From positions 1-61,422 of the IMG/VR virus record IMGVR_UViG_3300033407_000369: a stretch of 61,422 bases of DNA. One strand, written 5' to 3'. Position numbers and translations under genes: made by a program. The notes below the pieces were generated by a model that had not been told where the DNA came from, did not search any database, and worked only from the letters and a program-made list of their open reading frames with translations. Positions 3,921-44,678 of this stretch are shown here, one piece after another. Origin of the DNA: a virus (Duplodnaviria > Caudoviricetes). The first letter of the stretch is position 1. Each line of letters begins with the position of its first letter.

Positions 3921-4448
3921 ATGAGTAAAGATAAAATGCAACTGTTTCGGAAATCACGTAATTCCGGTATGCATAAAACCCTTCTGCGGGCTGGTTCGCA
4001 AGTGAATGGCCAGCCCGCAGAAGGTTGGGTTGTGCTTCGCCCTGGCAATACCGTTCTGTGTGCCCCGGCGGATTTGGGGAAAATGGGGATCAGGCAATTC
4101 GACTCCCTGTCGCCGGCCCTGGTCGAGGAAGAACCGATTGTCGAAACTAAGCCAGTGGCTGCAAAGCTCGGCATCAAGAAGCGCGAGAAGAGCAACCACT
4201 GGGATGTTATCAACCCGCTGAATCCAGATAAGCCGTTGAATGCAAAAGCACTGTCGAAGAAGCAGGCTGAAGAACTTTTGGCGCAGCTTCTGGACGAGCC
4301 AGTCGGCCAGGATAACCCCGATGACCTGGACGGTTTGCCCTGGGATTCCCTGGTCGATGTCTTGGAGAGGGAGGGCGGCACGGTTCCGGATGAAGTGGAA
4401 ACCGAAGCCGATTTGGCCGAACTAATCCGTAAAAATCGGGCGGAATAA
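3921..4448 (+). CDS. Hypothetical head-associated protein with C-terminal HeH/Rho-N-like helical domain
   Basis: RBS AGGAGG; follows MCP; C-terminal DLDGLPWDSL...ADLAELI. Confidence 0.45.
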   Translation: MSKDKMQLFRKSRNSGMHKTLLRAGSQVNGQPAEGWVVLRPGNTVLCAPADLGKMGIRQFDSLSPALVEEEPIVETKPVAAKLGIKKREKSNHWDVINPLNPDKPLNAKALSKKQAEELLAQLLDEPVGQDNPDDLDGLPWDSLVDVLEREGGTVPDEVETEADLAELIRKNRAE

Positions 4449-25143: not shown

Positions 25144-26180
25144 TTTGTCTTGGCTCCACAAGTTGGGCAATTCTTCGGCAAGCCGTTTTCAATCTTTTTG
25201 ATCTCGGCTTCCCCTGCCTCAATCTCTTGGTTTATTATACTCAACCGCCAACAAATCCGATTAATTTTTTTTGCTTTCGATTCACATTTTTCTATCTGTT
25301 CAGCAAGTGGCCGGATCGCAGACAACAGAACTTCGGCCCCATCGAGCTTGCCAAGGCTATCGGCAAGTGCGTTGTTTCGTCGCAGGCTGGCTGTTAAGCG
25401 ACTCAACCTTCCTACCCTATTCTCCAGGGCCGAAATTTCATCTACGAGCGTTTTTAGCCCCTTCAATTCATTTTCAGCTTCCAGGAGCGTTTCAGCTTCA
25501 ATTGTATCCGCTTCGACCTCCCGATATTGCTCAGCGGTTTTGACCAACCGATCCGCTTTCCTTTCCGCATCCCTAGCGTATTGGTCAAATAATTCGAGTT
25601 GTTTGACAGCCGCTTCTCGGTCTTCCAGGTCCGCAAATTGCTCCAATTCAGTTTCCAACCGTTCGAGTTCCGACTTTTTAGCTGTCATGGCCTGGCGGAG
25701 TTTCAGTTCGTCGCTCCTGGAATTGTCTAGTGCCCGGTCGATGTCGTCCAGGCCGGCAATCTTGTTTAGGATGCGGCCCCGCTCTCCCGGCGTCTCGAAC
25801 ATTAGGAAAGCCCGGTCGATTTGGGTCTGGAAATTCACATCATCCATGTTGATGACAGCTTGGACGGCTTCGGGCGGGGCACCATTCCCGGCGTTGATTG
25901 GTTCGTTGTCGTTTAGCCGGTAGTGGTTGCAGCTTTTGCCCTTCATCCGGGTTACTGTTTGGCCATCATCAAACTGGAGCGATACTTCGGTGGTGCCATC
26001 CCAATAGAGAGGCAGCATCTGGTCGCCAAGTGGCCGGTTGAACATTGTCCAATAAGCCGCCCGGAACGCCCCGGATTTACCCGCGTCGGACGGCCCGATC
26101 AGGACATTCAGGCCGGGGAGAAAGTCCAGCTTGGTGTCCCGATGGGATTCATGGTTGACGAGGTGAATAGAGTTGATCAT
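25140..26180 (-). CDS. sbcC: SbcC/Rad50-like N-terminal half (Walker A, coiled coil, Zn hook)
   Basis: GPSDAGKS, Q-loop FQTQ, coiled coil, terminal CPTCG. Confidence 0.85.
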   Translation of the reverse strand: MINSIHLVNHESHRDTKLDFLPGLNVLIGPSDAGKSGAFRAAYWTMFNRPLGDQMLPLYWDGTTEVSLQFDDGQTVTRMKGKSCNHYRLNDNEPINAGNGAPPEAVQAVINMDDVNFQTQIDRAFLMFETPGERGRILNKIAGLDDIDRALDNSRSDELKLRQAMTAKKSELERLETELEQFADLEDREAAVKQLELFDQYARDAERKADRLVKTAEQYREVEADTIEAETLLEAENELKGLKTLVDEISALENRVGRLSRLTASLRRNNALADSLGKLDGAEVLLSAIRPLAEQIEKCESKAKKINRICWRLSIINQEIEAGEAEIKKIENGLPKNCPTCGAKTK

Positions 26181-26371
26181 ACCGGCATTGCGTCACTTAT
26201 GGTTGTCGCCAATTTTCTGTAATTCTTTTTGGCTTTTTGGCATGGATCATGAGCGAAAAGATCAAGCAGCGCCCCAAGCTGGGCAGCTTCTTTCTTTTCC
26301 AAAATCAACACGACTTCCCCGGTTTCTTTCGTTCCTGCGGAATTTGTCATAAATGCGATTTTCATTTGCAT
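26177..26371 (-). CDS. Hypothetical protein
   Basis: Overlaps neighbours in the operon. Confidence 0.4.
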   Translation of the reverse strand: MQMKIAFMTNSAGTKETGEVVLILEKKEAAQLGALLDLFAHDPCQKAKKNYRKLATTISDAMPV

Positions 26372-26661
26372 TTCCTAATCGCCAAAACCACCTGGCGCCC
26401 AAATTCACATCGCTGGCAGTCCGCTTCTTCGGCGTTCCGCCGCCTGTTCATGCACCCCTTGACCGCAATAAAGCATTCCTGGATCGGGCAATAAAAATGG
26501 GTGGCCAGTTCAAAATCCTGGCAACAAGCTGATTCCTGCTTGATAAAGTCGATGGACGGTTTGCCGTGCAGCTTAGTCATTGGCCGGAAGTCGCAAATTC
26601 GGCCATTCCCGCCGTTGGATACCGATGCGCTGAAAAATTTCTTGCATACGCCACAAATCAT
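26362..26661 (-). CDS. Hypothetical Cys-rich protein
   Basis: Multiple Cys clusters; RBS AAGGAA. Confidence 0.45.
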   Translation of the reverse strand: MICGVCKKFFSASVSNGGNGRICDFRPMTKLHGKPSIDFIKQESACCQDFELATHFYCPIQECFIAVKGCMNRRRNAEEADCQRCEFGRQVVLAIRKCK

Positions 26662-26873
26662 ATTAATTCCTTTTTCTTCATCCAAACAGTAATGGTGACA
26701 TGAGGCAAATTATCGACTGTGTGCCTATACTCTCCCGCAATTCGCGAGAACCCTACGTCCACTGTTTTATCGAATAACGAATACCCATCTTTTTCTTTTT
26801 CTTGAATAAAAGCGTTGATTTCGGCATTCAGCTCCCACACCTTCCCGTTTTTATAAAAAACTTGAAAAATCAT
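26658..26873 (-). CDS. Hypothetical protein
   Basis: 71 aa, RBS AGGA. Confidence 0.4.
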   Translation of the reverse strand: MIFQVFYKNGKVWELNAEINAFIQEKEKDGYSLFDKTVDVGFSRIAGEYRHTVDNLPHVTITVWMKKKELI

Positions 26874-26881
26874 ATTAATTC

Positions 26882-27370
26882 CTACTTGTAAAATTCCGGA
26901 GTGATTCCAAAATTGGAAAATAAATCATCTAGCGCAATAGTTAGCTTTCTTGATTTGGGGTATTCGGGGAATTTCTTTTTGCCCCCGAACTTATTATACT
27001 GTTTACGCAACTTTTCGTAAGAACTTTTTTGAAGAATTTTCGCCTTGGGTTTTTCGCTTGGGTGTAGATAATGCGTGTGCGGGCGCTCCAGGTAATCCGC
27101 AACCGCTCTCAATATCGTCGGCAGATCGGCCTGCTTGATAGCAAACCTGACACAGCTATTCTCCGACTTGGCAATAAACGAATTGCAGTTACGACAAAGC
27201 ACCCCACGAATCAAGCCTGTTCCTTTGATTCTTTTTTTGTGATGATGGTCAAGAACGGGGTCAGTAATTAACTTGTCGCAAATCGGGCAAATACCGTTTT
27301 GAAATTCCAGCAAGGTATCCCGAACTGATTTTATTCGAGATCCGGGAAGTTGAATTGGCTTTCTAATCAT
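26882..27370 (-). CDS. Endonuclease VII-like (His-Me finger) resolvase/nuclease
   Basis: Q-x-G-x-CPIC...LDHHH...G-x-IRGVLC-x-x-CN. Confidence 0.88.
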   Translation of the reverse strand: MIRKPIQLPGSRIKSVRDTLLEFQNGICPICDKLITDPVLDHHHKKRIKGTGLIRGVLCRNCNSFIAKSENSCVRFAIKQADLPTILRAVADYLERPHTHYLHPSEKPKAKILQKSSYEKLRKQYNKFGGKKKFPEYPKSRKLTIALDDLFSNFGITPEFYK

Positions 27371-27594
27371 TTTGGCCCCTTTGGTTCGCACCAGTGAGTA
27401 AACAGCCGGTCGATTGCGAACGATTCTTTTTGCCCTGCCAGTAGCTTTTTGGCGTGTTCGTGGGCGATGTAACCCGGTGTTTCCCGCCATTGTTTTGTCG
27501 CCGGGTTCCAGATGAGGACCGGCTCCTGTTGGTCGGGCGGCAGGCGTTTGTGGATCGAAATCCAGATTATGTTCCAGAAGTCGGCTTTGTTCAT
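27367..27594 (-). CDS. Hypothetical protein (DUF551-like)
   Basis: WISI-x-x-RLP...VL...THW motif. Confidence 0.5.
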   Translation of the reverse strand: MNKADFWNIIWISIHKRLPPDQQEPVLIWNPATKQWRETPGYIAHEHAKKLLAGQKESFAIDRLFTHWCEPKGPK

Positions 27595-27603
27595 TTGTTT
27601 CCT

Positions 27604-27673
27604 TGCTATAAATAGCCCTTGCCGGACCCCGCCCCACCTTACCGGACCTCGCCCGGCCAGGCCTGGCCAGACC
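27604..27673 (-). ncRNA. GGY-NN pentamer array 1 with 3' hairpin tail (candidate guide RNA)
   Basis: - strand: GGT CT GGC CA GGC CT GGC CG GGC GA GGT CC GGT AA GGT GG GGC GG GGT CC GGC AA GGG CTATTTATAGC; 11 consecutive perfect GGY units. Confidence 0.8.
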
Positions 27674-27710
27674 AAAAAATATATGTAAATTGAATTTGTA
27701 TTTTGATTAA

Positions 27711-27774
27711 ATTCACTACAAAATAGCCCTTGCCTTACCTCACCTAGCCACACCTAGCCCCGGCTTGCCCCTCC
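27711..27774 (-). ncRNA. GGY-NN pentamer array 2 with 3' hairpin tail
   Basis: - strand: GGA GG GGC AA GCC GG GGC TA GGT GT GGC TA GGT GA GGT AA GGC AA GGG CTATTTTGTAGTGAAT. Confidence 0.75.
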
Positions 27775-27781
27775 ATAAATC

Positions 27782-28282
27782 TCAACTCAATTTCTCAACC
27801 GGCGCGAACAACTGCAACACACTGCGCCGTTGCTTCAGCAAAATCCCCCGGACCCCGGACATTCTGACCTGAGTGTCAACATGCCGTTTCCTGGCCTCTA
27901 TGTCCATTTCTTCCAGCTTGGCGTTGTCCAGAATCCGTTCCCCTTTGTTTAGCCCCTTGCGGATTAACCGCATTGCCTCTTCAACCGCGAACCTGGCCTG
28001 ATCATTTGGCGGCACAATATAATAGCCGGTTCCGCGAACGGTTTGAAGGGCGACTTTTCGCTCAGTCAGTAGGTAGTCTTTGAAAGCATCCACCCGCGAA
28101 AGCAAAAGCCACTGGATTTCTTCGGCTTGCTTCAGGGTTTTGATCGCTGGAATGAGCAAGGCCCACTTGATCCAGTCGTGCGAAAGCATTTCCCCAGCTT
28201 TTTTGTCGTCCTTGTCGTATGCGGAAACGGCATGGGTCAGCCAATCCGGGAATGCTTCGGTCTGCTTTTGCGGTAAGCTCAT
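27782..28282 (-). CDS. Hypothetical protein, accessory to the pentamer-array locus
   Basis: 166 aa, ATGA-coupled to the Cas7-like gene, enclosed by arrays. Confidence 0.65.
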   Translation of the reverse strand: MSLPQKQTEAFPDWLTHAVSAYDKDDKKAGEMLSHDWIKWALLIPAIKTLKQAEEIQWLLLSRVDAFKDYLLTERKVALQTVRGTGYYIVPPNDQARFAVEEAMRLIRKGLNKGERILDNAKLEEMDIEARKRHVDTQVRMSGVRGILLKQRRSVLQLFAPVEKLS

Positions 28283-28845
28283 TTGATCACCTCGACGGTA
28301 AAGCGGCCGAACTTAGGCCGGTAGTCCCCGACTCCACAGTATGCGCCACCGTCTTCCAGGCACTTGATGACTTCGGCCCGGTTGATGACTTCGGGATCAA
28401 ATGCGACTTCGCATTCCGTAGACCACTTACGGAAAATTGGCCGGTAGCGCATGATCCTGGCGGTCTGGACTTTGACGCTTCGGGCGTCGTAAAAACCGGC
28501 AGCCCACAAACCTTCTGCATCTTTCGGGCCGGGATATTCCAGGTAGCAGCGTTCGTCAATAACCTCAACGCTCCGTTTGAGTTGCGTACCCATCTTTGAT
28601 AACTTTCCCCCACCGATAAGAGTGGCTTCGATGTTGACCCCCGGTAAGAACGGGCCGCGTTCGTCGATATAAAGACCACCGAGCCATTCGCTCTTGGCGA
28701 TCAGTTCGTGGTCTTCGTCGGTCTTCTTCCGCTTGCTGGTCAATTCCTTGTGGGCTTTGGTCAGCGGGTTGAGCGGGTCGGCGAACTTGTCAGAATGCAT
28801 GAGCAACGGCCGAGTTCCAGTGATTTTGACTTTGATTGTGTTCAT
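28279..28845 (-). CDS. Stand-alone Cas7/RAMP-like protein (candidate effector of the GGY-NN arrays)
   Basis: N-terminal strand KITGTRPLLMH; LPGVNIEATL resembles RAMP iPGSSlKG; C-terminal G-rich loop YCGVGDYRPKFGRFTV; RBS AAGGAG. Confidence 0.65.
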   Translation of the reverse strand: MNTIKVKITGTRPLLMHSDKFADPLNPLTKAHKELTSKRKKTDEDHELIAKSEWLGGLYIDERGPFLPGVNIEATLIGGGKLSKMGTQLKRSVEVIDERCYLEYPGPKDAEGLWAAGFYDARSVKVQTARIMRYRPIFRKWSTECEVAFDPEVINRAEVIKCLEDGGAYCGVGDYRPKFGRFTVEVIK

Positions 28846-28918
28846 CGCTACTTTCTCCTTGGTTTTATTTTAGCCTAGATCAGAATTGATCTTTTTGGCT
28901 TTTGATAAACTGTTTTGG

Positions 28919-29002
28919 ATTCGCTACAAAGTAGCCCTTGGCGTACCGCGCCTCACCGTACCCAGCCCCGGCTAGCCCGGCCTTCCCCTGCCCGGACTTC
29001 CT
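28919..29002 (-). ncRNA. GGY-NN pentamer array 3 with 3' hairpin tail
   Basis: - strand: AGG AA GTC CG GGC AG GGG AA GGC CG GGC TA GCC GG GGC TG GGT AC GGT GA GGC GC GGT AC GCC AA GGG CTACTTTGTAGCGAAT. Confidence 0.75.
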
Positions 29003-29010
29003 ACAAACAT

Positions 29011-29020
29011 ATTATACTCA
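29011..29020 (-). promoter_or_regulatory. Putative -10 box (TGAGTATAAT) driving array 3 and the Cas7-like gene
   Basis: Perfect TATAAT 8 nt upstream of array 3; no consensus -35; the same 10-mer recurs at 45744-45753. Confidence 0.55.
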
Positions 29021-29042
29021 AACCAAGTCGCATTCGACTAAT

Positions 29043-29183
29043 TTATTTTTCTACCCATTCCTCAAATTCGTCAAACCAGCATTTCCCAGTATCAACCGCA
29101 TCGACCGCAAAGGCCCAAATAAAACCGATGGCCCAAAACGGAACGGACAGCAAATTCAAAACCAGACAAATCGACTTTCTCAT
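29043..29183 (-). CDS. Small membrane protein (46 aa)
   Basis: MRKSICLVLNLLSVPFWAIGFIWAF...; RBS GGGAG. Confidence 0.45.
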   Translation of the reverse strand: MRKSICLVLNLLSVPFWAIGFIWAFAVDAVDTGKCWFDEFEEWVEK

Positions 29184-29236
29184 AGTAACTCCCTTTTTTG
29201 TTTGTGTTTTTATTTACCGATATCCCTCGGCGGCCT

Positions 29237-29503
29237 CTATTTGTTCGCTTCCGGATTAACCACACGTAACCGGAAATAAGCGTTCCCAATTGCCGACATC
29301 ACATGCAGCTTCACCCCGGCCAAAATAATCTTATCCCCGGCGTGCATGATCCGCCGCTCCTTCTGCTCGGTTCCGTTTTCCGGGAATAAGCGGATGAACT
29401 TCAGGAACGGCCAGTCATTTCGCACAACGCGGTATTGCATGCCGTCAATGGATACCAGGGCGTCCGGCTTGAGATTGGTCCTCAGGGCTTCTGGGCCGTG
29501 CAT
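29237..29503 (-). CDS. Hypothetical protein
   Basis: ORF in the operon; start uncertain. Confidence 0.4.
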   Translation of the reverse strand: MHGPEALRTNLKPDALVSIDGMQYRVVRNDWPFLKFIRLFPENGTEQKERRIMHAGDKIILAGVKLHVMSAIGNAYFRLRVVNPEANK

Positions 29504-29508
29504 TGGCG

Positions 29509-30348
29509 CTACATCTTCTTGAAGTGCCTTATCCATTCGTCAACTTCCCCCGCTAGTTTTTTGAACCCGTATAAATCACAAATCGCCAAAAACCCTTCCG
29601 GGTTAAAATTGTCTTTTTGAAGTTTGATCGGCTTGGTTGCGGCGTGTGGTAAATCGACTAGCTGCTTGTTGAATCCTGCTATACGCTTCCCTTCGTAACT
29701 TACGATGTCCTCGAATTTCTTCCCTTTGGTTAATTCCCCCTTTAGATACCGCAGGGCGGTTGTATTGCCAACCCCTGCCACCCCCGGAACCTTGTCGCTA
29801 TTGCACCCGGCAATTGCCTTGACCTCCGCCCATTGCCTTGGAGTAATCCCATATTCAGCCCGGAATGTCCGGCCATTTATTAGCTTTTTCTTGGCAGGGC
29901 TGTACCACGCGCAATCGTCGGTCAGTTGCAGCAGGTCTTCATCGTTTGTCAAAACAACCGATTGCCCCCGGCGTTCCTTGACAAATATAGCAATCAGATC
30001 GTCAGCTTCCAGGCCGGTTTGAATAAACGAATTGCCAAACCCAAGCAACGGCATGATGGTCGTCCGGATGGTTTGGATCTGACCGCAGGCGTCCAAGAAC
30101 GCTTCTTTTTCTTCGTCGGTCTTGGGCTGGTCGCGCTTTTTATATCCTGGCAGAACCTGCGACCTGAATCTCTTCCGGCTGTCCCACATGAAGACCGGAT
30201 CGGTCAGGCCAAACTGGCGGCACATAATCAGAATTTGCGTCACAAACCCGTAGATTACGCCAGTGCCTTTGTCATTATGGGATAATTTGCCGGATGAATG
30301 GAAAGCCCTCCAGCAGAAGTAATGGCAGTCGAAGACCAGGTATTTCAT
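29509..30348 (-). CDS. 5'-3' exonuclease / flap endonuclease (Pol I N-terminal-like)
   Basis: YK-x-x-R-like, EADDLI, DEDLLQL and G-x-x-SDKVPGVAGVG-x-x-TA motifs. Confidence 0.9.
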   Translation of the reverse strand: MKYLVFDCHYFCWRAFHSSGKLSHNDKGTGVIYGFVTQILIMCRQFGLTDPVFMWDSRKRFRSQVLPGYKKRDQPKTDEEKEAFLDACGQIQTIRTTIMPLLGFGNSFIQTGLEADDLIAIFVKERRGQSVVLTNDEDLLQLTDDCAWYSPAKKKLINGRTFRAEYGITPRQWAEVKAIAGCNSDKVPGVAGVGNTTALRYLKGELTKGKKFEDIVSYEGKRIAGFNKQLVDLPHAATKPIKLQKDNFNPEGFLAICDLYGFKKLAGEVDEWIRHFKKM

Positions 30349-30366
30349 TTTTGCCTTTTGAAAATT

Positions 30367-30470
30367 TGGGCGGGCAGGATTTGATACCTGCATGATGATT
30401 TAGTCAAGGGGCCATAGCGGACCATCTTCCACCGTTCCCCCGTAGCGTCTATACTCTTCCGCCACCGCCC
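30367..30470 (-). ncRNA. tRNA-like element with non-canonical, expanded anticodon arm
   Basis: GGGCGG/CCGCCC acceptor stem, Leu-type D arm GCGGAAGAGTATAGACGC, T arm GCAGG-TATCAAAT-CCTGC; no 7-nt anticodon loop and no CCA. Confidence 0.55.
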
Positions 30471-30477
30471 AAAATAC

Positions 30478-30672
30478 CTACGCCTTGGCCAGCTCGTTGC
30501 TCTTGGCCCGGAACTCCTTCATCAGTTTGGTCAGCTCGTTGCTGGCCTTCCGGGCTTCGGCTCCGGCTTTTTTGCTGCCGCGATCCCCGGCGATTTGGGT
30601 TTCGGCCCCATCGTCGAGGATGGCCATTTGTACCCGGATGTCATCAAGTACCGCGTGTAAATCTCTGCCCAT
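30478..30672 (-). CDS. Small histone H1 (Hc1)-like basic protein
   Basis: KKAGAEARKASNELTKLMKEFR resembles the family motif KAAG-x-RARK-x-S-x-EL-x-K-x-x-KEFR; RBS AAGGAGG. Confidence 0.7.
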   Translation of the reverse strand: MGRDLHAVLDDIRVQMAILDDGAETQIAGDRGSKKAGAEARKASNELTKLMKEFRAKSNELAKA

Positions 30673-30871
30673 TTTTCGTTCCTCCTTGGTTGTTTGGTTT
30701 TACTTGTTCTGGCACTCCATCTTGGTTTCAGCCCTTACTCGATTAACTTCTTTATTGAAGTTTGCGTTTGCCGCGAACATCGAAATTGCCCAGAAAATCA
30801 AAACAACAACAATTCCACCATCAAACAATTTTACTGCTTTCATCTTCTCCTCCTTGGTTATTTGGCTAGGG

Positions 30872-31918
30872 TCAATCCCTGGCCTTTGGTTTGCGCTCCT
30901 GCTTGAACTGCTCTTGTATCTCTTCCCATAAATCGATTACGGCTTCTTTCAATTCAGCTTCCAACCCGTCTTCCTCTACGGCTTTGATTGCCCCGTCCAG
31001 GCTGTTTGACAAGACCTCGCTCCCGTCAATCGAATATTTCTTATGCCGGGAGTTTTGCTTCAGGAAAATCAGATTTGCCCGGACATCATCAATCCCGTAA
31101 CTGTCGATGATGTAAATTTCTGCTTGCCGGTACCCTTTATCAACAGAAGATTTGACAACATCGACTTTCGACATCACCCCATAACTTTCCTTGTGGGCTT
31201 TGCCGTGGATGGTTTTTTCTTCCCGCAGCACTTTGATCTTCGTAATTTCCAACCGCAAGGAAGCGTAGAACTTAGGGGCGTGTCCGCCGGTCGCCTTGGT
31301 CTTTTTGGCAAATGGCGTGGTTGCCATAGTGTCCCGGATCTGATTCGAGAAAACCATCAGATAATTGTTGTCTTTGATCAGGCGAATGCAGCGCCGGAAT
31401 CCTTGGCTGAAGTCGTTCGCTCTCTTGGCGCCATCGTATCCGGCAGCGTCTTTCATTTCCGCTTCGGTGCAGAGGGCCGCGATGGAATCAGCGATGATAC
31501 CGTGCGGGCCTTGGCCTTCCGGCTTCCAGGAAACAAACTCTTCGAATACTTCGGCGATGGTGTCCGGCTGGCGGATGGTCTTATCCCCGATGGAAAAGTC
31601 GAACAGTTTGGCGAATTCCTTGTCCAGCCGGGCTTCGGGATCGTTGAAAATCACATCTCCGCCCTTCCGCTGGATAGCCCCGGCGATTTCGCACATCAGA
31701 ACGGTTTTGCCGGCGGACGAATCGCCGAAAATCTCAACCGCAATGCCAACCGGGATTCCCCCTCCCCGCTTTCTGGTACCGGTCAGGGCCAGGTCCAGCA
31801 ACGTCGAGCCGGTGCTGACCATCACTTCGTCATTGCCTTCGTAGAGCGGCTGTTTTCGTTCCGTTTCTGCGTTGCGCTTGATTTTCCGGACCAGCCCAGC
31901 TTTAGAGCCCCTTTCCAT
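30872..31918 (-). CDS. recA: RecA/UvsX-like recombinase
   Basis: STGS-x-x-LD-x-AL, GDSSAGKT, DSIAAL, NQIR and GG-x-A-x-KFYAS-x-R motifs. Confidence 0.92.
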   Translation of the reverse strand: MERGSKAGLVRKIKRNAETERKQPLYEGNDEVMVSTGSTLLDLALTGTRKRGGGIPVGIAVEIFGDSSAGKTVLMCEIAGAIQRKGGDVIFNDPEARLDKEFAKLFDFSIGDKTIRQPDTIAEVFEEFVSWKPEGQGPHGIIADSIAALCTEAEMKDAAGYDGAKRANDFSQGFRRCIRLIKDNNYLMVFSNQIRDTMATTPFAKKTKATGGHAPKFYASLRLEITKIKVLREEKTIHGKAHKESYGVMSKVDVVKSSVDKGYRQAEIYIIDSYGIDDVRANLIFLKQNSRHKKYSIDGSEVLSNSLDGAIKAVEEDGLEAELKEAVIDLWEEIQEQFKQERKPKARD

Positions 31919-36044: not shown

Positions 36045-38750
36045 TTAAAAAGTGAAAATATTGTCGAACTTTCTTTGCTCAATTGGAGATGGATCTTGAT
36101 TGGTATTCCAGGCGCCGATTTTGTCCAGAATCGCAAGGGTTGTTTTGCCGATACCCTTGATTTCACGTTTGGTTGATGTTTTTGTGAAAAACCCCTTTCC
36201 TTTTATTGGTTTGTGTTCCGCGATCAATTTCGCAACATTGTCCCCGATGCCGTTGATAGACGTGAACGGGGCGAATAGTTGGCCGTCCTTGTCTACGATC
36301 CAGGAAGTGGCGTCCGAAATCCCAATTTTCGGCAATCGCAAAACGGCGCCAGCCCGCTTAGCTTCGGCGATGTAACCCCGGAAATGATCTTTGTTTCCGA
36401 AAGTCAAGCAACAAGCCAGAAATTCCCGTGGATAGTAGGTTTTCAGCCACATATCCCAATATGTAATTACTGAGTATTCGACAGAATGCGAGCGATTAAA
36501 TCCGTACTTGCCGAATGTTGAAATTGTCTTCCAGACCTCTTTTGCTTTCTTTTCGGTCAACGTTTCTTTTTCCGAGCATCCCTTGACAAATTCTGCCTGA
36601 TATTTGTTCAGCTCTTTTGCGCCCTTGCTTTTTGCCATCACCCCGCGAATTTTATTGCAAACGTTCATCGGGATTCCTGCCAGCCGATTGATGACCAGCA
36701 TCACCTGTTCCTGATAGACGATAATTCCCAGAGTATTCTTTGTAATTTCGTCATATATCGGATGGATTTTTTCAATCGCTTCCCGACCATGTTTCCGCTT
36801 GATGAACCTTTCGGCCATGCCGGAATGGAGCGGGCCGGGGCGGAACAGAGCCGTTGCAGCAGAGAGCAGCTCGAAGTTATCAATCCCGAGTTCCTGGCAG
36901 TATCCAGACAAACCTTTTGCGCTGATTTGGAAGGCACCGGCGACGTCGCCCTTGTTGATTTGAGAAAAGACTTTTTCGTCGTCTAGCCGGATGTCTTGGA
37001 AAACAATGTCGATGCCGTGGTTGATCTTAATCATCTTCCGGGATTCATTCAGGACGGACAGGGCAGACAGGCCAAGCACGTCCAGCTTCATCAACCCCAT
37101 ATATTCAGCGTTTTCCTTGTCCCAATTAGCGACAACAGTATTTGAGCGGATGGCCAAATTGCACTTGCGACCTTTTCGTAAATCCTGAGAAGAAATGCAG
37201 ACGGCGGCGGCATGCTGGCCGACTCCTCTTATCTGGCCCTCCAGGGCTTGCGCGACTTCAACCACTTTCGGGTATCTGGCTCGGAAACGGTTGCATTCTT
37301 CGTTGTCGCCGGAAAATGAGGTTTTGATTTGCTCTTTGTCGTCCAGGGCGTCATCCATCGCCTTTGCAGCTTTGTCTACCTCGGAAAGCGGAACGTCAAA
37401 AACCCTGGCCACATCCCGCAATGCGCCCTTACCCCGGATGGTCATAAACGTGGAGAGGCCGGCAACATTATGCTCGCCGTATTTGTCGGACAGATATTTT
37501 CTAACCAATGGGCGTTTGTGGTCTTCAAAATCAAGGTCGATATCTGGGAGGTCAGAGCGATCCGGGGAAATAAACCGGAAAAAGACGAGATCAAACTCTA
37601 TTGGGTCAACATCGGTTATTCCCAGCAGATAGGCGATCAAACTTCCGCCAACGCTGCCACGACCGGGGCCAACCATCACGTCATTCTTCCTGCACCACGT
37701 TATCAAATCCCAGACGATTAGGAAATATTTCTGGAATCCCATTTTTTTGATGAGTGTGAATTCTTCAACTATTCGTTCGTCGTAAATTGTCTTTTGTTCG
37801 GCGGTTTGATTTGGAAGGCGCAGTTGTTTTCCTTTACAAATCAAACTCCAGAGAAACAAATGCTCTTCTTCATCGACTAAATCTAGGCCGATTCCCGGCA
37901 AGGCAATCGGCTGTTGCTTTATCTCGAACCCCTCGCAAATCTTAGCGACCCTGACCGAATTCCGCATTGCTCGTTTGATCTGGCCTTCGTCAAAACAATC
38001 TTGATAGACAAATGCGTCAAACATCTCTTCATAATCTTTCAGGTGCAGGCCGGCAAACGAAAACTTCCAACGGGTTTTGTCCTCCCAGGTTTTCCGGGAT
38101 TGAATAGCCAGCAAAACCTCTTGGTGCATGGCTGATTCAGCGGTCGGATAGTGGCAATCGTTTGTGGCTACCAGCTCCAGGCCATACACTTCTGCCAACT
38201 TCTTGATCCGCTTGTTCAGTTTGATTTGCGGTTCAAAGTCGTGGGGCATAATCTCCAGGAACACCCGCTCTTTTCCGATCTTGTCAATTGCGCCTTGCAG
38301 AAATTCCCGGCCACCTGGCATACCCAGGAACGACATCGAGCAGCCCGACAACACAACCAAACCGTTCAGGTGGGCCAATAGGGTTTGTGGATCTATCCTT
38401 GGCCGGGAATAGAAGCCATCAAGATTAGCAATGGTCAGCATCTTTAAGAGATTGACCCAACCGATTTGATTTTCGACTAATACTGTTATGTGATAGCGCG
38501 TTTCGCCTTTGGGCTTGTCGGCCAGGTTTGGGACGATGTAGAGTTCGCAACCGATCAGCGGCTTGATCCCGACTTCCCGGCATGCTTTCTGGTGGGCCAG
38601 AGCGCCATCGATGTTACCATGATTGCTAATTGCGAGGTGGGTTTGGCCCTTGGCCTTGGCCAGCTCGGCAAATTGCTTGGAACTTCCGATGCCGTCTAGC
38701 ACGGAATATTCGTTGTGTAGGTGCAGGTGGCAGAAGCGCATTTTATTCAC
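36045..38750 (-). CDS. dnaE: DNA polymerase III alpha subunit (C-terminally short)
   Basis: HLHLHNEYSVLDG (PHP), GPGRGSVGGSL, PDIDLDF, KLDVLGL and YGFNRSHS motifs. Confidence 0.97.
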   Translation of the reverse strand: MNKMRFCHLHLHNEYSVLDGIGSSKQFAELAKAKGQTHLAISNHGNIDGALAHQKACREVGIKPLIGCELYIVPNLADKPKGETRYHITVLVENQIGWVNLLKMLTIANLDGFYSRPRIDPQTLLAHLNGLVVLSGCSMSFLGMPGGREFLQGAIDKIGKERVFLEIMPHDFEPQIKLNKRIKKLAEVYGLELVATNDCHYPTAESAMHQEVLLAIQSRKTWEDKTRWKFSFAGLHLKDYEEMFDAFVYQDCFDEGQIKRAMRNSVRVAKICEGFEIKQQPIALPGIGLDLVDEEEHLFLWSLICKGKQLRLPNQTAEQKTIYDERIVEEFTLIKKMGFQKYFLIVWDLITWCRKNDVMVGPGRGSVGGSLIAYLLGITDVDPIEFDLVFFRFISPDRSDLPDIDLDFEDHKRPLVRKYLSDKYGEHNVAGLSTFMTIRGKGALRDVARVFDVPLSEVDKAAKAMDDALDDKEQIKTSFSGDNEECNRFRARYPKVVEVAQALEGQIRGVGQHAAAVCISSQDLRKGRKCNLAIRSNTVVANWDKENAEYMGLMKLDVLGLSALSVLNESRKMIKINHGIDIVFQDIRLDDEKVFSQINKGDVAGAFQISAKGLSGYCQELGIDNFELLSAATALFRPGPLHSGMAERFIKRKHGREAIEKIHPIYDEITKNTLGIIVYQEQVMLVINRLAGIPMNVCNKIRGVMAKSKGAKELNKYQAEFVKGCSEKETLTEKKAKEVWKTISTFGKYGFNRSHSVEYSVITYWDMWLKTYYPREFLACCLTFGNKDHFRGYIAEAKRAGAVLRLPKIGISDATSWIVDKDGQLFAPFTSINGIGDNVAKLIAEHKPIKGKGFFTKTSTKREIKGIGKTTLAILDKIGAWNTNQDPSPIEQRKFDNIFTF

Positions 38751-39666
38751 ACAATCCGTAAATTGAACTACATTCGGTCGTCTCCGGCTTCGTTAGCCCA
38801 AAGCCGATTCGCTTGCCGCCATAGTGGGTTTTAGACCATCTTACCACGGCATCTATATGCGCACGGCTGTATCCTTCACCGGGGATGGTATCGCTCGAGA
38901 AAAACGTGGCGCATTGCCAGGGGGTTGCTTGAGCAACCATTCTTTCCCATTCTCGGATTCGGTCAATCACTTCGGGGAATCTGGCCTGAATTTGGAACAT
39001 TTCGTCTTTTCCGCAATGAATACACGGCATGCATCCAACTCGCTTAAACCCCATTGAATATAGCGGGTTCGGTTTTATTCCATGCCTTTTTGCCATTGTG
39101 AAAGTTCGTTCTGCGGTCCATCCCAAAATAGGTCGCACGACAATAAAATATTTATCTTCCCTCTGCCATTGGGGGAGATGCATTCTTGCAAGAGATTCGT
39201 CCGCACGTACCCCTTGCCATGAATATACCCGCTCCCCGTCCTGTTGTTTTGAATTGCTAAAATCGGTAAGAATTTCCCGCTTTAATTCCACGGAGCAAAA
39301 CCTCGCTTTAGTTGACGGGAAGCGAGATTTATATATCGCCAAATCTAAAAAAGGGCTGCCGGTTGGCACCAGTAGGTTGGCGGCACTATCTGCGAATTCT
39401 TGGGATACGCCATGCTTTCCAGGCCATTTTGTTTTGATAAACTCCGCCTTTTTGGCCATTCTTACCGAAAAATCGGCCTTAACTCTGAATATTGGCCCTG
39501 TTGCCTCTTCCAAATAATCCAAATAATCCATTGTAACTTGGTGTTCGTTGCCAGTATCGGCAAAGACGGCGATGTGCTCAATGCCTTTTTCAATGGCGAC
39601 TAGGCGAGTAGCAAGGCTATCCTTCCCCCCGCTCATGCTGATTATATGGGTTGCTTTGGGTCGCAT
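38743..39666 (-). CDS. PAPS reductase-family (PP-loop) protein
   Basis: SGGKDS, DTGNE, RFCS-x-x-LK, GVRADES-x-x-R and RVGCMPC motifs. Confidence 0.85.
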   Translation of the reverse strand: MRPKATHIISMSGGKDSLATRLVAIEKGIEHIAVFADTGNEHQVTMDYLDYLEEATGPIFRVKADFSVRMAKKAEFIKTKWPGKHGVSQEFADSAANLLVPTGSPFLDLAIYKSRFPSTKARFCSVELKREILTDFSNSKQQDGERVYSWQGVRADESLARMHLPQWQREDKYFIVVRPILGWTAERTFTMAKRHGIKPNPLYSMGFKRVGCMPCIHCGKDEMFQIQARFPEVIDRIREWERMVAQATPWQCATFFSSDTIPGEGYSRAHIDAVVRWSKTHYGGKRIGFGLTKPETTECSSIYGLCE

Positions 39667-40686
39667 CTACTCTCCAATCAAACAAATTACATGCTTGAAA
39701 TTCTCACCCTCGAACAGCATCGAATTTTCCCCAACCACGCAGTGCGTCACGTGATCCAGGATATCGGCCAGCATCGACGGGGACACCAGGAATTCAATCT
39801 TATCCCCGCTGAACGCGCAATTGACCGATTCTTCGAACCACCCATAGTCCCCTTCGCCCCGGATGACCATGCGCTTGTTCTCGACCGTGATCTTGACTTC
39901 CTCGTCCCGCGCAATCTGGGCGTTGCTAAACACCCCGGCCTTGTCCAGCACTTCCTTCATCGATCCGGGCAACTTCAGCTCCACCCCTTCGACAATTAGG
40001 AATGGTGAAATGTCCGGGAATTCGTCGGCGTAGGTGCGACACGAGAAGACCACGCCATTCTTGGCCCTAAAATGCGCCCAGCCGGTCGTCTGGCAGAATT
40101 CCTTAACCGAGTACCGCACCAGGCTCTTCGCGGCGGTGGCGGGAATACAGAGGCTTTCCTTGAAGGCTTTCTTACCGGCCTGCCCGATGTCAATCCGGAT
40201 GATCCGGAAGTCGTCACTGGCTTCGATGAGTTGGCCCTTGATATGGCAGCAGGTCAGGATCGGCTTGCTCATGTCTTTAGCGGCAAAGTTCATGGCCATC
40301 TTCAGGGCGGGCAGGAAGGTATCGGGAATGGCCGTAAACTTGTCAGCCAGGGTTCCTAGCTCGTCCAACGGCAATTTGATTTCCGCTTCGATCTTGATGC
40401 CGGCCTTGGCCCGCTTCCCGGAAATCAGGAGTTCGTTGTCGGTGATTTGGATGTCGATGTCGTCGTCCTTGAGCTTGGATACCAGGGCGTACAGTTCGTT
40501 TGCTCGGACGGCCCCGGTGATTTGAAGATCAAGGGGATGGCGGACGGCGATTTCGTCGTTGTAGGTTACGACCTCGCCGGGCAGGAATGCGAAGGAAGTT
40601 GCTTGTTCAATCACGTCTCGCTGCCCCAACCCCGGACGAACTGCATCAAGAATCGCAACAAATTCGGCTTTATTTATTTTTGCCAT
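39667..40686 (-). CDS. dnaN: DNA polymerase III beta sliding clamp
   Basis: 339 aa; ASDDFRI (cf. ATDGHRL), EFPD; in the replisome block. Confidence 0.8.
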   Translation of the reverse strand: MAKINKAEFVAILDAVRPGLGQRDVIEQATSFAFLPGEVVTYNDEIAVRHPLDLQITGAVRANELYALVSKLKDDDIDIQITDNELLISGKRAKAGIKIEAEIKLPLDELGTLADKFTAIPDTFLPALKMAMNFAAKDMSKPILTCCHIKGQLIEASDDFRIIRIDIGQAGKKAFKESLCIPATAAKSLVRYSVKEFCQTTGWAHFRAKNGVVFSCRTYADEFPDISPFLIVEGVELKLPGSMKEVLDKAGVFSNAQIARDEEVKITVENKRMVIRGEGDYGWFEESVNCAFSGDKIEFLVSPSMLADILDHVTHCVVGENSMLFEGENFKHVICLIGE

Positions 40687-41302
40687 ACCGGTTCTCCTTC
40701 AATGATTTTGATATTTTTAGTTTGGTTTCTTCTGAACAAACTCTGCCCCGGCTCTTAGCCCCTATTCGACTTTTTGTCAGCTCACTTCTTTTGGCTCCTA
40801 GGTTATGGCTTATCACGTGCGCGGAATGGTTAGTCACCGTTAAATTTTCAATTCTATCATCAGAAGGGTCACCGTTAATGTGGTGAACTATTTCGTTGCT
40901 CAATAATGAGCGTCCTATTCCTTTTTCTACGACAATTCTTGCGCGGGCTTTATATTCACCCTTAGAAATTCTAATAAAAATACGACCGCCCTTCACCGTC
41001 ATTATCCCGCCGCTCCAATTATGGTGTTTATCACCAGATTTCGCTTCGGATAGCTTTCGACGAGTTTGTTCTGATTTTATTCTACCAGTGCTGGAAACAG
41101 ATAATTTTTTTCTGGTTTCTTCTGAAATTTTTATATTCTTCCTGGACTCAGAAAGGCGCTCTTTTGTTTTTTTTGAATGTTGTTTGCCATAAAAAGGATT
41201 GTCTTCCCCATGCGTATTGTGCCCAGAAACATAGCTGCGAAATTCTCCGGGTTTGAATTCGTTAACTTCTTGACCACAACCACATTTGCATTCTCGCGAC
41301 AT
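40670..41302 (-). mobile_element. Free-standing NUMOD3/HNH homing endonuclease
   Basis: NPFYGKQHS and SEETRKKLS repeats; VHHINGDPSDDRIENL. Confidence 0.88.
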
Positions 41303-41365
41303 TTTTGCCCTCCCTATAGGTTGATTTTCAGAATAATAACCTGGGTTGGCGAAGAAAGCTGTATT

Positions 41366-41434
41366 TTATTTATCCTTTGCGGCCAGACCTGGCTTGACAG
41401 CTTCGAGGGCTTCCAGTAGGGTTTTCTTTAACAT
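41366..41434 (-). pseudogene. Remnant 5' end of a dnaN allele (MLKKTLLEALEAVKPGLAAKDK*)
   Basis: Aligns with the dnaN N-terminus (FVAILDAVRPGLGQRD); own RBS AAGGAG. Confidence 0.6.
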
Positions 41435-41446
41435 TTTGGCTCCTTG

Positions 41447-42151
41447 TTATTTGATTGCGATCCAGCCGGCAAAATTCATCCAGCGCCATATACAATCGAC
41501 ATTTTTAAACCCTGCCATGTGGAGAAGTTCTTCGTTCCATTTTGCGGTAACTGGGACAAGGACACCTTCGAGAGACATTTTTTTTCTCTGGATTTGCTCT
41601 TCGGAGTACCCGTTTGCCCTTTTCATATCGAGGTAGGCAGAAACCATTACTCGATCAATATACGAATTGGCGCCAAGAACTTTCTCAATAAAAATAAATG
41701 CACCGCCAGGGAGCAGATGATTATAGACCGATTGAACAATCCATTGACGATACTCAATCGGGACAAACTGAATAGTTAGAACGGACAAAATAAGATTCGC
41801 TGGCGCTATCGACCCCGGAATTCCTTCGCGGAGATCGTGCATTTCTATTTTTACACAATCATTCCCCGAAAACCTTTTTTTAGCGGCAGAAATCATTGGA
41901 GCCGAATATTCAAGGCCAAAAAATTTATTTTCGGCGCCGTTCGCGATTAGTCCTGCGATTGCTTCGCCACGAGAGCATCCAATGTCAATTACTACCGAAC
42001 GGCCATTGATGAACCTCTTCGCGATTTCAGTGGTAATATTCCGCATTATTTCGTACTGTGGAATTGATCGGCCAAGCATATCGTCAAAGCAAGAAGTTAC
42101 ACCCTCATCAAATTCCCATTTCTTACCCGGCTGAACATTATCTTTATTCAT
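41447..42151 (-). CDS. cmoA: CmoA-like carboxy-SAM synthase
   Basis: FDE-x-V-x-x-x-FDDML-x-RSIP-x-Y, DIGCSRG, TIQF, EK, K-x-x-x-LEGV and NF-x-x-x-IA-x-K motifs. Confidence 0.8.
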   Translation of the reverse strand: MNKDNVQPGKKWEFDEGVTSCFDDMLGRSIPQYEIMRNITTEIAKRFINGRSVVIDIGCSRGEAIAGLIANGAENKFFGLEYSAPMISAAKKRFSGNDCVKIEMHDLREGIPGSIAPANLILSVLTIQFVPIEYRQWIVQSVYNHLLPGGAFIFIEKVLGANSYIDRVMVSAYLDMKRANGYSEEQIQRKKMSLEGVLVPVTAKWNEELLHMAGFKNVDCIWRWMNFAGWIAIK

Positions 42152-43581
42152 AGCCCGAACCCTCCAGCTGGTGCCAAATACTTATTCTTGAATTCGTTGC
42201 GGTAAAATGCCATCGCTTGCTGCTTGCCGCCAAATATCTTTTGAATGTCTTCTTTAATCCCTGCGCCATCTTGAAAAGCTACTTTTGGGCGGTAAAGAAT
42301 TTCTTTATCTATTATACTTAATGAAAACGCCGCTGACAAAATATTTTTCAGATTTTTCCCATCTCTTATTATTTCAACTGGTAGCGACAGCAAAAACCGG
42401 ACTAAATTTTTATTTAAAAATGGCAACCGGCTTTCTACTCCAAAATGCATAAATATTTTATTGGTTCTCGGGAAGTTTTTCTTTTCTTGAGAAGAAAAAA
42501 GCTCTTTTCTGTATTGATGAAAATCCTGTTTTTTTAATTGGTGATAGCTGAATGCATAGCTCGCGAGCAATTCATCAGCACCCTCGCCGGAAAAAACTAC
42601 TTTGAAACCATCTTCGCTAATTTTTTTTGCTAACCAATAACAGATCCAGCCAATCTCGATTTGCGCTTTATACGGCATTTCAATAATGTCAATTATTTTA
42701 CTAAGGTCTCCCCTTATTGGCCGGGGGATTTTCACTTCGACCAGTTTAATACTCAGGGTATCCGCCAGTTTCCTTGCATATTTAAGATCGTTCGATTTTT
42801 CATTATATACCGCGGTATACGCGGTGATATCAGGAGTTGTCAGTGAAAGTAAATATGTAATAATCGAACTGTCAATACCGCCAGAAAGCAATGTACAGAC
42901 CGGTACATCCGAAATGGTTCTTTCCAACACAGACTTTTCTAAAAAGGTACGAACCTTTTTCGACGAAGCATCAACATTAAGCGAGCTTTTTGTAATTGGA
43001 ACCTCGTAAAAAGGCGCTGCTGAATACCCTTTTGCGGTAATTTTTAAAATAGATCCTGGTGGGGCATTCATCGAAAGGGCAATAGGAGCACCAATTTGCT
43101 TCAAAACTTTTAATTCAGAACAAAACTGAAATGGATATTTTGGAATAAAATGAAGCGGGATTTCTCCAAAAATATCCCTCGCCAAATAGAATCCATCTTC
43201 TCCAGCTACGCACCAGGCAACAGCAAACATACCACCTAGCCGCTCAATTCCCTTTGCCCCAAATTTATCTATTATGGCCGCAACAACTTCGGTGTCGGAA
43301 TCGGTGTTGAATATCACTCCAGCTTGCTGAAGTTCTGTTTTTAATTCGCGGTAGTTCCAGATTTCTCCGTTGAACGAAATTGTTACCGATCCAAAGGTAA
43401 ACGGCTGATTCCCTCGTTCGGAAAGATCAATTATTGATAATCTTGTATGGCCAAAAATTACAGTATCGTTCGAAAATATTCCTTCTGAATCTGGCCCCCG
43501 ATGTCGTAGCAGTTTAACCGCACGTCGAATATCTATAGCAGATTTCGGCCCACAATTAAACTGCCCGACGATGCCACACAT
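42148..43581 (-). CDS. asnB: Asparagine synthetase B-like amidotransferase
   Basis: MCGI, HRGPD, RLSIID, NGEIWN, SDTEV, LLSGGIDSS and SGEGADE motifs. Confidence 0.93.
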   Translation of the reverse strand: MCGIVGQFNCGPKSAIDIRRAVKLLRHRGPDSEGIFSNDTVIFGHTRLSIIDLSERGNQPFTFGSVTISFNGEIWNYRELKTELQQAGVIFNTDSDTEVVAAIIDKFGAKGIERLGGMFAVAWCVAGEDGFYLARDIFGEIPLHFIPKYPFQFCSELKVLKQIGAPIALSMNAPPGSILKITAKGYSAAPFYEVPITKSSLNVDASSKKVRTFLEKSVLERTISDVPVCTLLSGGIDSSIITYLLSLTTPDITAYTAVYNEKSNDLKYARKLADTLSIKLVEVKIPRPIRGDLSKIIDIIEMPYKAQIEIGWICYWLAKKISEDGFKVVFSGEGADELLASYAFSYHQLKKQDFHQYRKELFSSQEKKNFPRTNKIFMHFGVESRLPFLNKNLVRFLLSLPVEIIRDGKNLKNILSAAFSLSIIDKEILYRPKVAFQDGAGIKEDIQKIFGGKQQAMAFYRNEFKNKYLAPAGGFGL

Positions 43582-44678
43582 TATATTTTACTCAGAATAG
43601 TGTTATAAATATGTTCTGCGACCACTTTCATCATTAACGGTGGCACCGCCCTCCCAAGGCGCTCCCATTTTTTTATAAAATTGCCGTGGAGAATATAGTC
43701 GTCAGGGAAAGACATAATACGCAGGCATTCTTGCAGTGAAATGAAACGAAGTTCGTCAAAATGCATATAACTCTTAACGCGACTTGCTAAAATTGTGGGG
43801 GACGGTAGATCCTTATGCAGCCGATGAAAATTATACCCGTGGCCCTTTGGATGTATATCGCCAATAGATTGGCCTGGCTGCAGCTTTCGGAACCAATCAC
43901 CATAGGTTCCGCCAGGTATTGTTAAATATGAGAGATTTTCTTCGTCCCAAATAATCGGGTCGATATTTCGAAATGCAGAACTGGCACTAATCCATTTTTC
44001 AACAGTCCTTTTGGGAAACGAAGGAGAAATACCAAGATCATCACGAACTCCAATTATAATAAGGCGCTCTCTTGTCTGTGGAACACCGTAATCTGCCGAA
44101 TTCAAAATTTTCCAGCGGACTTTATACCCCGCTTTTTTAAATTCGGAAAGTATCGATACACTTTTGTTTAGGCCAAATCCAGAATTAACTCCGCCGAGAA
44201 TAGCTTTCGCCGCACCAATTGATAACCCTTTGACATTTTCCGAAATAAAGACTTTCGGGCGAACTTCACGCAAAATCCGCACAAATTCAAAAAATAAGTC
44301 GTCGACACGTTGATTTGTATCGCTATATTTTTTTACTTTTCCCCACGCCTTCTCGCGTTTGCCAGACATACTGAATGATGCACATGGCGGGCTTCCATCC
44401 AATATATCCAAGTCGCCTGGTTTGATTCTCAGGCGACGGCATATCATATTCCCAGTTAATTCTCGAATATCTCCGGGGAATATAAATGTATTCGGATAAT
44501 TAGCCCGGTACGTATCAACTGCCGATGGGATAAATTCGTTGATAGCGAGAATCTTCCCTCCTGCTAGGCGGTAACCAGTTGAAGACCCGCCACCGCCAGC
44601 AAAGGTAGAAACGACGGTGAAAAGCCCTTTCTTTTCACCGTCGTAAACATCTTTTATTGAATAAGGGATCGAAATCAT
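43581..44678 (-). CDS. C5 cytosine DNA methyltransferase, possibly a carboxymethyltransferase
   Basis: FAGGGG, GSPPC, ENV and YGVPQ-x-RER motifs; motif X reads LGRAVPP instead of GNAVPP. Confidence 0.9.
   Translation of the reverse strand: MISIPYSIKDVYDGEKKGLFTVVSTFAGGGGSSTGYRLAGGKILAINEFIPSAVDTYRANYPNTFIFPGDIRELTGNMICRRLRIKPGDLDILDGSPPCASFSMSGKREKAWGKVKKYSDTNQRVDDLFFEFVRILREVRPKVFISENVKGLSIGAAKAILGGVNSGFGLNKSVSILSEFKKAGYKVRWKILNSADYGVPQTRERLIIIGVRDDLGISPSFPKRTVEKWISASSAFRNIDPIIWDEENLSYLTIPGGTYGDWFRKLQPGQSIGDIHPKGHGYNFHRLHKDLPSPTILASRVKSYMHFDELRFISLQECLRIMSFPDDYILHGNFIKKWERLGRAVPPLMMKVVAEHIYNTILSKI

Follow-up and report, generated by a model that had tools for sequence, protein, structure and literature searches.

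We analyzed the virus record IMGVR_UViG_3300033407_000369 over its whole length of 61,422 bases, here called the window. The record is estimated to be 89% complete and holds a siphophage with terminase, tape measure, and tail genes and a large replication/recombination module. On its minus strand lie two genes, one for a Cas7-like RAMP of 188 amino acids (positions 28279-28845) and one for a protein of 166 amino acids (27782-28282). The pair is flanked by three tracts of pentamer units of the form GGYNN (Y is dC or dT and N is any nucleotide), with tract 3 (28938-29002) on one side and tracts 2 (27730-27774) and 1 (27619-27673) on the other. These parts were compared with VIPR (Viral Interference Programmable Repeat), a CRISPR-related DNA silencer introduced in 2026 preprints, which is described as combining a RAMP encoded by a phage (Vipr) with an accessory gene (vap) and with vrRNAs of 9-16 GGY/NN units and a structured tail (10.64898/2026.04.26.720920). 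Vipr is characterized as a small RAMP with a single RRM, a G-loop, and a thumb, and the repeat part of a vrRNA as a tandem run of four or more YNNGG/GGYNN units in which GGY is conserved and NN hypervariable. The two genes are here called vipr and vap1, and tracts 1 to 3 with their tails are named vrRNA-1 to vrRNA-3.

All three tracts are on the minus strand. Tract 1 consists of 11 units (GGTCT GGCCA GGCCT GGCCG GGCGA GGTCC GGTAA GGTGG GGCGG GGTCC GGCAA), each beginning with GGY, and its NN string is CT CA CT CG GA CC AA GG GG CC (AA). GGY is found in seven of the nine units of tract 2 (GGAGG GGCAA GCCGG GGCTA GGTGT GGCTA GGTGA GGTAA GGCAA), which gives GG AA GG TA GT TA GA AA (AA). Tract 3 has 13 units (AGGAA GTCCG GGCAG GGGAA GGCCG GGCTA GCCGG GGCTG GGTAC GGTGA GGCGC GGTAC GCCAA), eight of them with GGY, and reads (AA) CG AG AA CG TA GG TG AC GA GC AC (AA). 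The initial annotation had decoded the same three NN strings from its arrays 1, 2, and 3, and these were identical to the in-register units, including the bracketed first AA of array 3 and the constant last AA. Each tract ends in either GGCAA or GCCAA. A pattern of four GGYNN units with at most one mismatch was matched 34 times in the window, compared to 3.94 ± 2.43 times over 100 shuffles, none of which reached 34 (maximum 11), and 24 of the 34 matches fall within the three tracts. With six units, the pattern had 15 matches, all of them on the minus strand, while the backward-read controls gave 1 and 0 matches.

The 188-residue protein belongs to phrog_4652 (E 4.4e-73), and the PHROG scan placed the 195-residue Vipr of phage SUSP1 in the same family. 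The two proteins were found to be 47% identical over 190 residues (BLASTP, E 3e-61), and tblastn of the window protein against SUSP1 gave 47.4% identity at 99% coverage (E 3e-49). An AlphaFold2 model of the window protein had a mean pLDDT of 90.2 and a pTM of 0.83. The best matches of this model in the PDB, as found by Foldseek, were all backbone chains of the Cas7 family (Csm3, Cmr4, and type VII Cas7), with Csm3 at the top (best E 6.5e-6, TM 0.48; 96 chains at E ≤ 0.001). The C-terminal glycine-rich loop (CGVGDYRPKFGRF) was invariant in an alignment of 22 sequences. A Pfam scan found no domain in either the 188-residue or the 166-residue protein. Homologues of Vipr numbered 578 at E ≤ 0.001, all named ones being annotated as "hypothetical protein," and their sources include Pseudomonas, Vreelandella, and a metagenome-assembled genome (MAG) of Competibacteraceae.

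The residues that hold G1, G2, and Y3 and contact the skipped base are named in the structure preprint as H17, D177, R138, W178, R179, C173, K33, E71, and M72 (10.64898/2026.04.26.720927). H17, K33, R138, C173, D177, and R179 of SUSP1 are identical in the window protein (H17, K33, R135, C170, D174, and R176), and W178 is conservatively replaced by Y175. The residue that the preprint gives as T175 is V175 in the GenBank record of SUSP1 and V172 in the window.

The 166-residue protein fell into phrog_5926 (E 7.2e-26), as did the 146-residue neighbour of Vipr in SUSP1 (E 1.1e-75), and the pairwise similarity of the two was weak (E 4e-4). In 34 of 41 related loci, the gene next after vipr is a homologue of this vap1-like gene.

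A small hairpin of the form GGGCTAYTT..TAGY was found after each of the three tracts. The vrRNA-1 tail (27595-27618) has the hairpin GGGCTATTTATAGC at 27605-27618 and continues directly into the ribosome-binding site of a 75-residue open reading frame (ORF) of the DUF551 family (27367-27594). In the vrRNA-2 tail (27674-27729) the hairpin GGGCTATTTTGTAG(T) at 27716-27729 is followed by an AT-rich stretch, with a T run at its end just before tract 1. The segment from 28846 to 28937 forms both the tail of vrRNA-3 and the leader of vipr; here the hairpin GGGCTACTTTGTAGC at 28923-28937 is followed by a second predicted hairpin, GATCAATTCTGATC. The arms of the three hairpins (GCTAT/ATAGC, GCTAT/GTAGT, and GCTAC/GTAGC) differ by compensatory changes. 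Among relatives, the GGGC-hairpin forms in 54 of 60 unique tails, with nine distinct arm pairs, compared to 108 of 1200 shuffled tails. Folds of the three whole window RNAs were no better than those of shuffled sequences (z of -1.18, 0.31, and -1.57). The 5' part of vrRNA-1 (27650-27672, GGCCAGGCCTGGCC) was found to be self-complementary; the pentamer pattern is therefore matched there on both strands and the segment is predicted to self-fold, which could compete with the loading of Vipr.

The related loci were collected by a scan of viral contigs with the 188-residue protein, which gave 39 loci of 32-80% identity, and one further locus was added through a pattern scan. Another candidate locus, L009, was rejected as a chance match in a coding region. 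A register-aware scan of the related loci found 142 tracts with at least five GGY units, almost all on the strand of the protein genes and, among the matches listed, up to six in tandem. Unit positions 1, 2, and 3 were G in 96%, G in 94%, and C or T in 97%, percentages to be read in light of a tract finder that itself demands GGY in most units; positions 4 and 5 were mixed. The initial annotation had raised the question of whether the NN strings are invariant across related phages. They were found to vary widely even between close relatives, with GGY retained. In the SUSP1 locus the two genes were preceded by one GGY/NN tract and followed by three, which agrees with the preprint. Among the matches listed, most units of the related loci contain about 10 pentamers and then three hairpins, of which the GGGC-hairpin is the first and the third is small, while the gene-proximal unit often has the first hairpin only, as do all three window units. 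A search of the related loci against Rfam gave only a chance miRNA match, in four loci.

More distant relatives of Vipr (32-54% identity) were seen to carry different tails (L043, 3743-3915 and 5046-5105; L046, 3668-3800 and 4461-4588; L049, 4587-5247; and L048), and some of their tracts end in terminator-like hairpins and T runs. L046 also has a GGTAGTAGAGC motif between tracts, and a GCT-type periodic tract was found on the opposite strand in L048 (minus strand, 3259-3349).

Altogether, the region is very probably a compact VIPR cassette of the SUSP1 and Pseudomonas fulva kind (type II of the preprint), carried by a 61-kb soil siphophage, with the tracts as its guide RNAs. What carries this reading was observed here: the tracts, the RAMP fold and homology of Vipr, the conservation of the GGY-contact residues, the vipr-vap1 pair, and a preference of the relatives for a skip of one nucleotide, described below. 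With the type II systems of SUSP1 and the P. fulva prophage the locus shares a phrog_4652 Vipr together with a phrog_5926 Vap1, guides of 9-13 GGY/NN units both upstream and downstream of the genes, conserved GGY-contact residues, the lack of a self-target, and relatives that obey the same skip rule. It differs from them in its host, an uncultured soil siphophage with a replication/recombination module of its own; in its tails of one hairpin of 4-5 base pairs (bp), where SUSP1 has a pseudoknot (10.64898/2026.04.26.720920; 10.64898/2026.04.26.720927) and most Pseudomonas-type units a tail of three hairpins; in the position of the vrRNA-1 tail against the ribosome-binding site of the DUF551 gene; and in Y175 for W178 and V70/N71 for E71/M72.

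Class 1 CRISPR-Cas systems (Cas7/Csm3) have in common with VIPR the RAMP fold, the glycine-rich loop, one protomer per short RNA segment, and periodic base flipping. Whereas the CRISPR spacer is contiguous with every sixth base flipped, the VIPR guide is non-contiguous, with a period of 5 nucleotides, of which two are read per unit, and one target base skipped. No CRISPR array, with direct repeats of about 25-40 nucleotides between unique spacers, was found. Tandem Repeats Finder returned only the short-period tracts from 26000-31000, and the PHROG scan of 60 window ORFs found no other Cas-like families.

On the minus strand the parts lie in the order vrRNA-3, vipr, vap1, vrRNA-2, vrRNA-1. In the published systems, to which the cassette is homologous, the NN pairs are reported to read double-stranded DNA with one skipped base between pairs (10.64898/2026.04.26.720920). 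From this homology, each tract would be transcribed into a small RNA on which one Vipr protomer sits per pentamer, sequestering GGY and exposing the NN pair. The resulting filament would pair its NN dinucleotides with double-stranded DNA, leaving one skipped base between matching dinucleotides, and the gapped R-loop so formed would block transcription of a competing mobile element. Expression, loading, and activity of the three vrRNAs are presumed on the same grounds. Contigs of a second soil run held short identical pieces only and no variant of the locus, and among the public runs listed there was no RNA run holding it.

The initial annotation had proposed that each NN reads two target bases and skips one. 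This register is the same as the published "1 nt skip rule," which according to the preprint rests on pangenome searches (E. coli and Pseudomonas RefSeq), in vitro competitive binding, and GFP repression (10.64898/2026.04.26.720920). In our own test, the unique guides of the window, of SUSP1, and of the related loci, 105 altogether, were compared with 384,488 bases of the same loci with the tracts masked. Natural VIPR targets are defined in the preprint by a match of at least 80% of the NN bases (10.64898/2026.04.26.720920). Such matches were found for 12, 41, 16, and 18 of the 105 guides at skips of 0, 1, 2, and 3 nucleotides, compared to 81, 82, 82, and 74 of 525 NN-order shuffles. For guides with at least 10 NN and a match of at least 85%, the numbers were 0, 14, 0, and 1 of 83 guides and 2, 5, 8, and 6 of 830 shuffled guides. 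The strongest sites (20/20, 23/24, 21/22, and 27/30 NN bases) were all found at a skip of 1, several of them within vipr genes of other prophages. Most strong sites had one to three mismatches. The last NN, usually AA, matched in only 67% of cases, and its omission from the predicted strings, as in the initial annotation, is therefore reasonable. Since the loci are related to each other, the matches are not independent events.

The suggestion that the skipped bases fall on codon wobble positions was likewise supported. Skipped bases are stated to lie "overwhelmingly" at wobble positions (10.64898/2026.04.26.720920), and among our 29 distinct strong guide-site pairs the skip was on codon position 3 in 21, on position 1 in seven, and on position 2 in one, with the codon phase set by a crude longest-ORF rule. 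That targeting would thereby become insensitive to escape is also found in the abstract of a later preprint, according to which codon periodicity prevents mutational escape (10.64898/2026.10.15.759431). The VIPR cassettes of related prophages appear to target each other. Among the guides with the broadest matching, that of one locus (L028) matched 18-20 of 20 NN bases at a skip of one nucleotide in the vipr genes of L034 (approximately 4177-4206) and its relatives, and a guide of L025 matched 19-20 of 22 NN bases at the same skip in the vipr gene of L021 (approximately 4031-4062).

Several points weigh against the locus being a VIPR cassette with guide RNAs. The pyrimidine-pocket residues E71 and M72 differ in the window Vipr, as V70 and N71. 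Tract 2 has only eight informative NN, and five of the constant triplets in tract 3 are degenerate. The window tails, with their single hairpin of 4-5 bp, are far shorter than the published ones and have neither the SUSP1-type pseudoknot nor the three-hairpin tail common in related prophage units; no Rfam family reached its gathering threshold in the window. Further, none of the three guides (vr1, vr2, and vr3, from tracts 1, 2, and 3) could be assigned a target in collection scans that were made with exact patterns only. At full length, vr3 (22 bases) had no exact match in viral contigs or in metagenome contigs, and vr1 (20 bases) had none in viral contigs. Among genome contigs (596 Gb), vr1 matched exactly once, in a MAG of SAR324. 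A second exact site, inside a cellular gene for a FAD/ALO oxidase, occurred in two metagenome contigs that are nearly identical.

By our own arithmetic, about one match is expected for 20 specified bases in 596 Gb if equal base use is assumed. The exact vr1 matches do not rise above chance, and their codon phase is wrong, the skip being on position 2 both in the oxidase gene and in the longest ORF at the SAR324 site. The 16-base halves of vr3 were found in 52 and 5 viral stretches, in which at best 19/22 NN bases matched in total, with codon position 2 as the one skipped. A single redundant family contributed 40 of the 52 stretches, and the matches were read as chance. The initial annotation had also suggested that the gapped strings be searched for in this genome. 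No self-target stood out above NN-order shuffles in the window at gaps of 0-3, and the preprint likewise describes its systems as free of self-targets (10.64898/2026.04.26.720920).

For none of the predicted strings was a convincing target found in any scan, while the peptide that had been predicted for array 2, G-K/N-G-Y-V-Y-D/E-K/N, was found as a candidate. By estimate, vr2 (16 bases) matches about 430 viral stretches. Among the matches listed, 85 of 107 lie in frame on GYGNGYVYEK of genes for Sak4-like AAA_24 ATPases, in 26 nucleotide versions. A single control, made of the same NN units in reverse order, matched 52 stretches, of which 31 were in one conserved family and in frame; in-frame matches in a heavily sampled family are therefore no evidence alone. 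The match pattern of vr2 is therefore the one to be expected in any case of a 16-mer that is purine-rich and codon-like. Neither vr1 nor vr3 matched four whole records of the Sak4 virus group above shuffles, and none of the guides of related VIPR loci converges on this group. The Sak4 motif is thus only a candidate target of vr2. That a single hairpin of 4-5 bp is enough to cap a guide and that vr2 at the same time targets, in frame, the G-N-G-Y-V-Y-E-K motif conserved in these recombination ATPases is a combination that we consider unlikely.

The trp leader RNA of Bacillus that is bound by TRAP is built on a similar plan, with a conserved triplet, spacers of 2-3 nucleotides, and some 9-11 repeats, each bound by one subunit. 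TRAP is a ring of MtrB subunits, and the spacers carry no information. The tracts could accordingly be imagined as sites for a TRAP-like ring or filament protein that reads the constant triplet only and regulates downstream genes, the NN being uninformative spacers. The triplet with its 2-nucleotide spacer, the 9-13 repeats, and the location just upstream of genes fit such a role, as would the rapid turnover of NN among relatives and the failure to find targets for the window's own guides. However, matches between the NN of related loci and other prophages occur specifically at a skip of one nucleotide, far above shuffles and above other gaps, and spacers devoid of information could not produce them; the published systems are reported to be reprogrammed by changing NN alone (10.64898/2026.04.26.720920). 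No TRAP-family (MtrB) domain was found in the 11 proteins scanned with Pfam, of about 85 ORFs. In the window the "spacers" would themselves carry the information, the protein being a RAMP, and we consider the TRAP-like role very improbable. A role of the tracts as DNA and not as guides, be it as G-quadruplexes or bent DNA, as upstream elements of promoters, or as sites of replication or packaging, has still less to commend it and can almost be discounted. A GG every five bases could form two-tier quadruplexes, and the tracts are intergenic and lie beside AT-rich, promoter-like DNA. Quadruplexes, however, need no pyrimidine at the third position, where C or T was found in nearly all units of the relatives, and neither the compensatory changes of the tail hairpin with its excess over shuffled tails nor the travelling of tracts with vipr-vap1 into unrelated genome contexts would be accounted for. 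The SUSP1 counterparts are moreover described as sequenced RNAs that co-purify with Vipr (10.64898/2026.04.26.720920). Initial ideas of a promoter, a TRAP-like leader, a tandem RNA of the type III toxin-antitoxin kind, a G-quadruplex, or an N4-type hairpin promoter were dropped given the RAMP fold and the VIPR preprint.

A different possibility is that the cassette is a true VIPR cassette with some decaying, orphaned, or decoy guides, such as tract 2 with its eight NN or the degenerate units at the 5' end of tract 3, whose NN would have no living target. Non-canonical constant triplets (tract 2, 2 of 9 units; tract 3, 5 of 13 units), the minimal tails, and the lack of a convincing target in the collections scanned are consistent with this, and decoy-directing and orphan vrRNAs are described in the October 2026 abstract (10.64898/2026.10.15.759431). 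The scans, on the other hand, accepted exact matches only, while natural targets need just the 80% NN match given above and most strong sites have one to three mismatches. Even live guides would therefore be expected to lack targets in such scans, and we regard a decay of guides as unlikely, though worth keeping in mind.

Six genes that flank the putative VIPR cassette in the window were compared with the 41 related loci and were present in none of them, from which we conclude that the cassette is mobile and moves as a unit. The DUF551 assignment of the 75-residue ORF is marginal (22.1 bits against a cut-off of 22). Downstream of it lies a gene for a 162-residue endonuclease VII (26882-27370), whose start overlaps the DUF551 stop (ATGA). 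A longer ORF of 251 residues with a GTG start (26882-27637) was rejected as an artefact that runs through vrRNA-1, the real genes being the DUF551 ORF and endonuclease VII. Endonuclease VII was itself considered as an additional nuclease partner and rejected, with a homologue in 0 of the 41 related loci and the DUF551 ORF separating its gene from vrRNA-1. Just upstream of vrRNA-3 there is an ORF for a hydrophobic protein of 46 residues (29043-29183), which matched no family and lacks homologues in the 41 related loci.

Two gene groups elsewhere in the window were also observed. Between 4451 and 11162, inside the structural module, lies a cluster of sugar/lipid-type enzymes comprising a sialyltransferase-like protein, a zinc alcohol dehydrogenase, a FabG-like reductase, and an 818-residue protein with methyltransferase and glycosyltransferase matches. 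Siphophages do not usually have such a cluster, which may have to do with modification of the virion or of the host surface. Beside the DNA polymerase (38743-44678) are genes for a PAPS-reductase-like protein, a SAM methyltransferase, a DNA methyltransferase, and an asparagine-synthase/glutamine-amidotransferase protein with a weak QueC match, which together may form a DNA-modification module.

The kind of system found here is already known, with 664-667 representative VIPR systems found in NCBI according to the preprint (10.64898/2026.04.26.720920). The locus is a further example, from an uncultured soil siphophage, and leaves the known picture unchanged. The skip test confirms the 1-nt skip rule independently and by computation alone, on prophage loci from IMG/VR, a data set other than that of the preprint, and the minimal tails may help to define what a vrRNA requires beyond its repeat tract. 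If the candidate target of vr2 were true, one guide would silence a whole family of competing viruses or proviruses regardless of synonymous variation, and this would amount to broad-spectrum, escape-proof targeting of a conserved protein motif and not of a single rival. VIPR represents RNA-guided DNA recognition with a non-contiguous code, proposed to predate CRISPR, and its vipr-vap1-vrRNA cassette moves between unrelated phage backbones.

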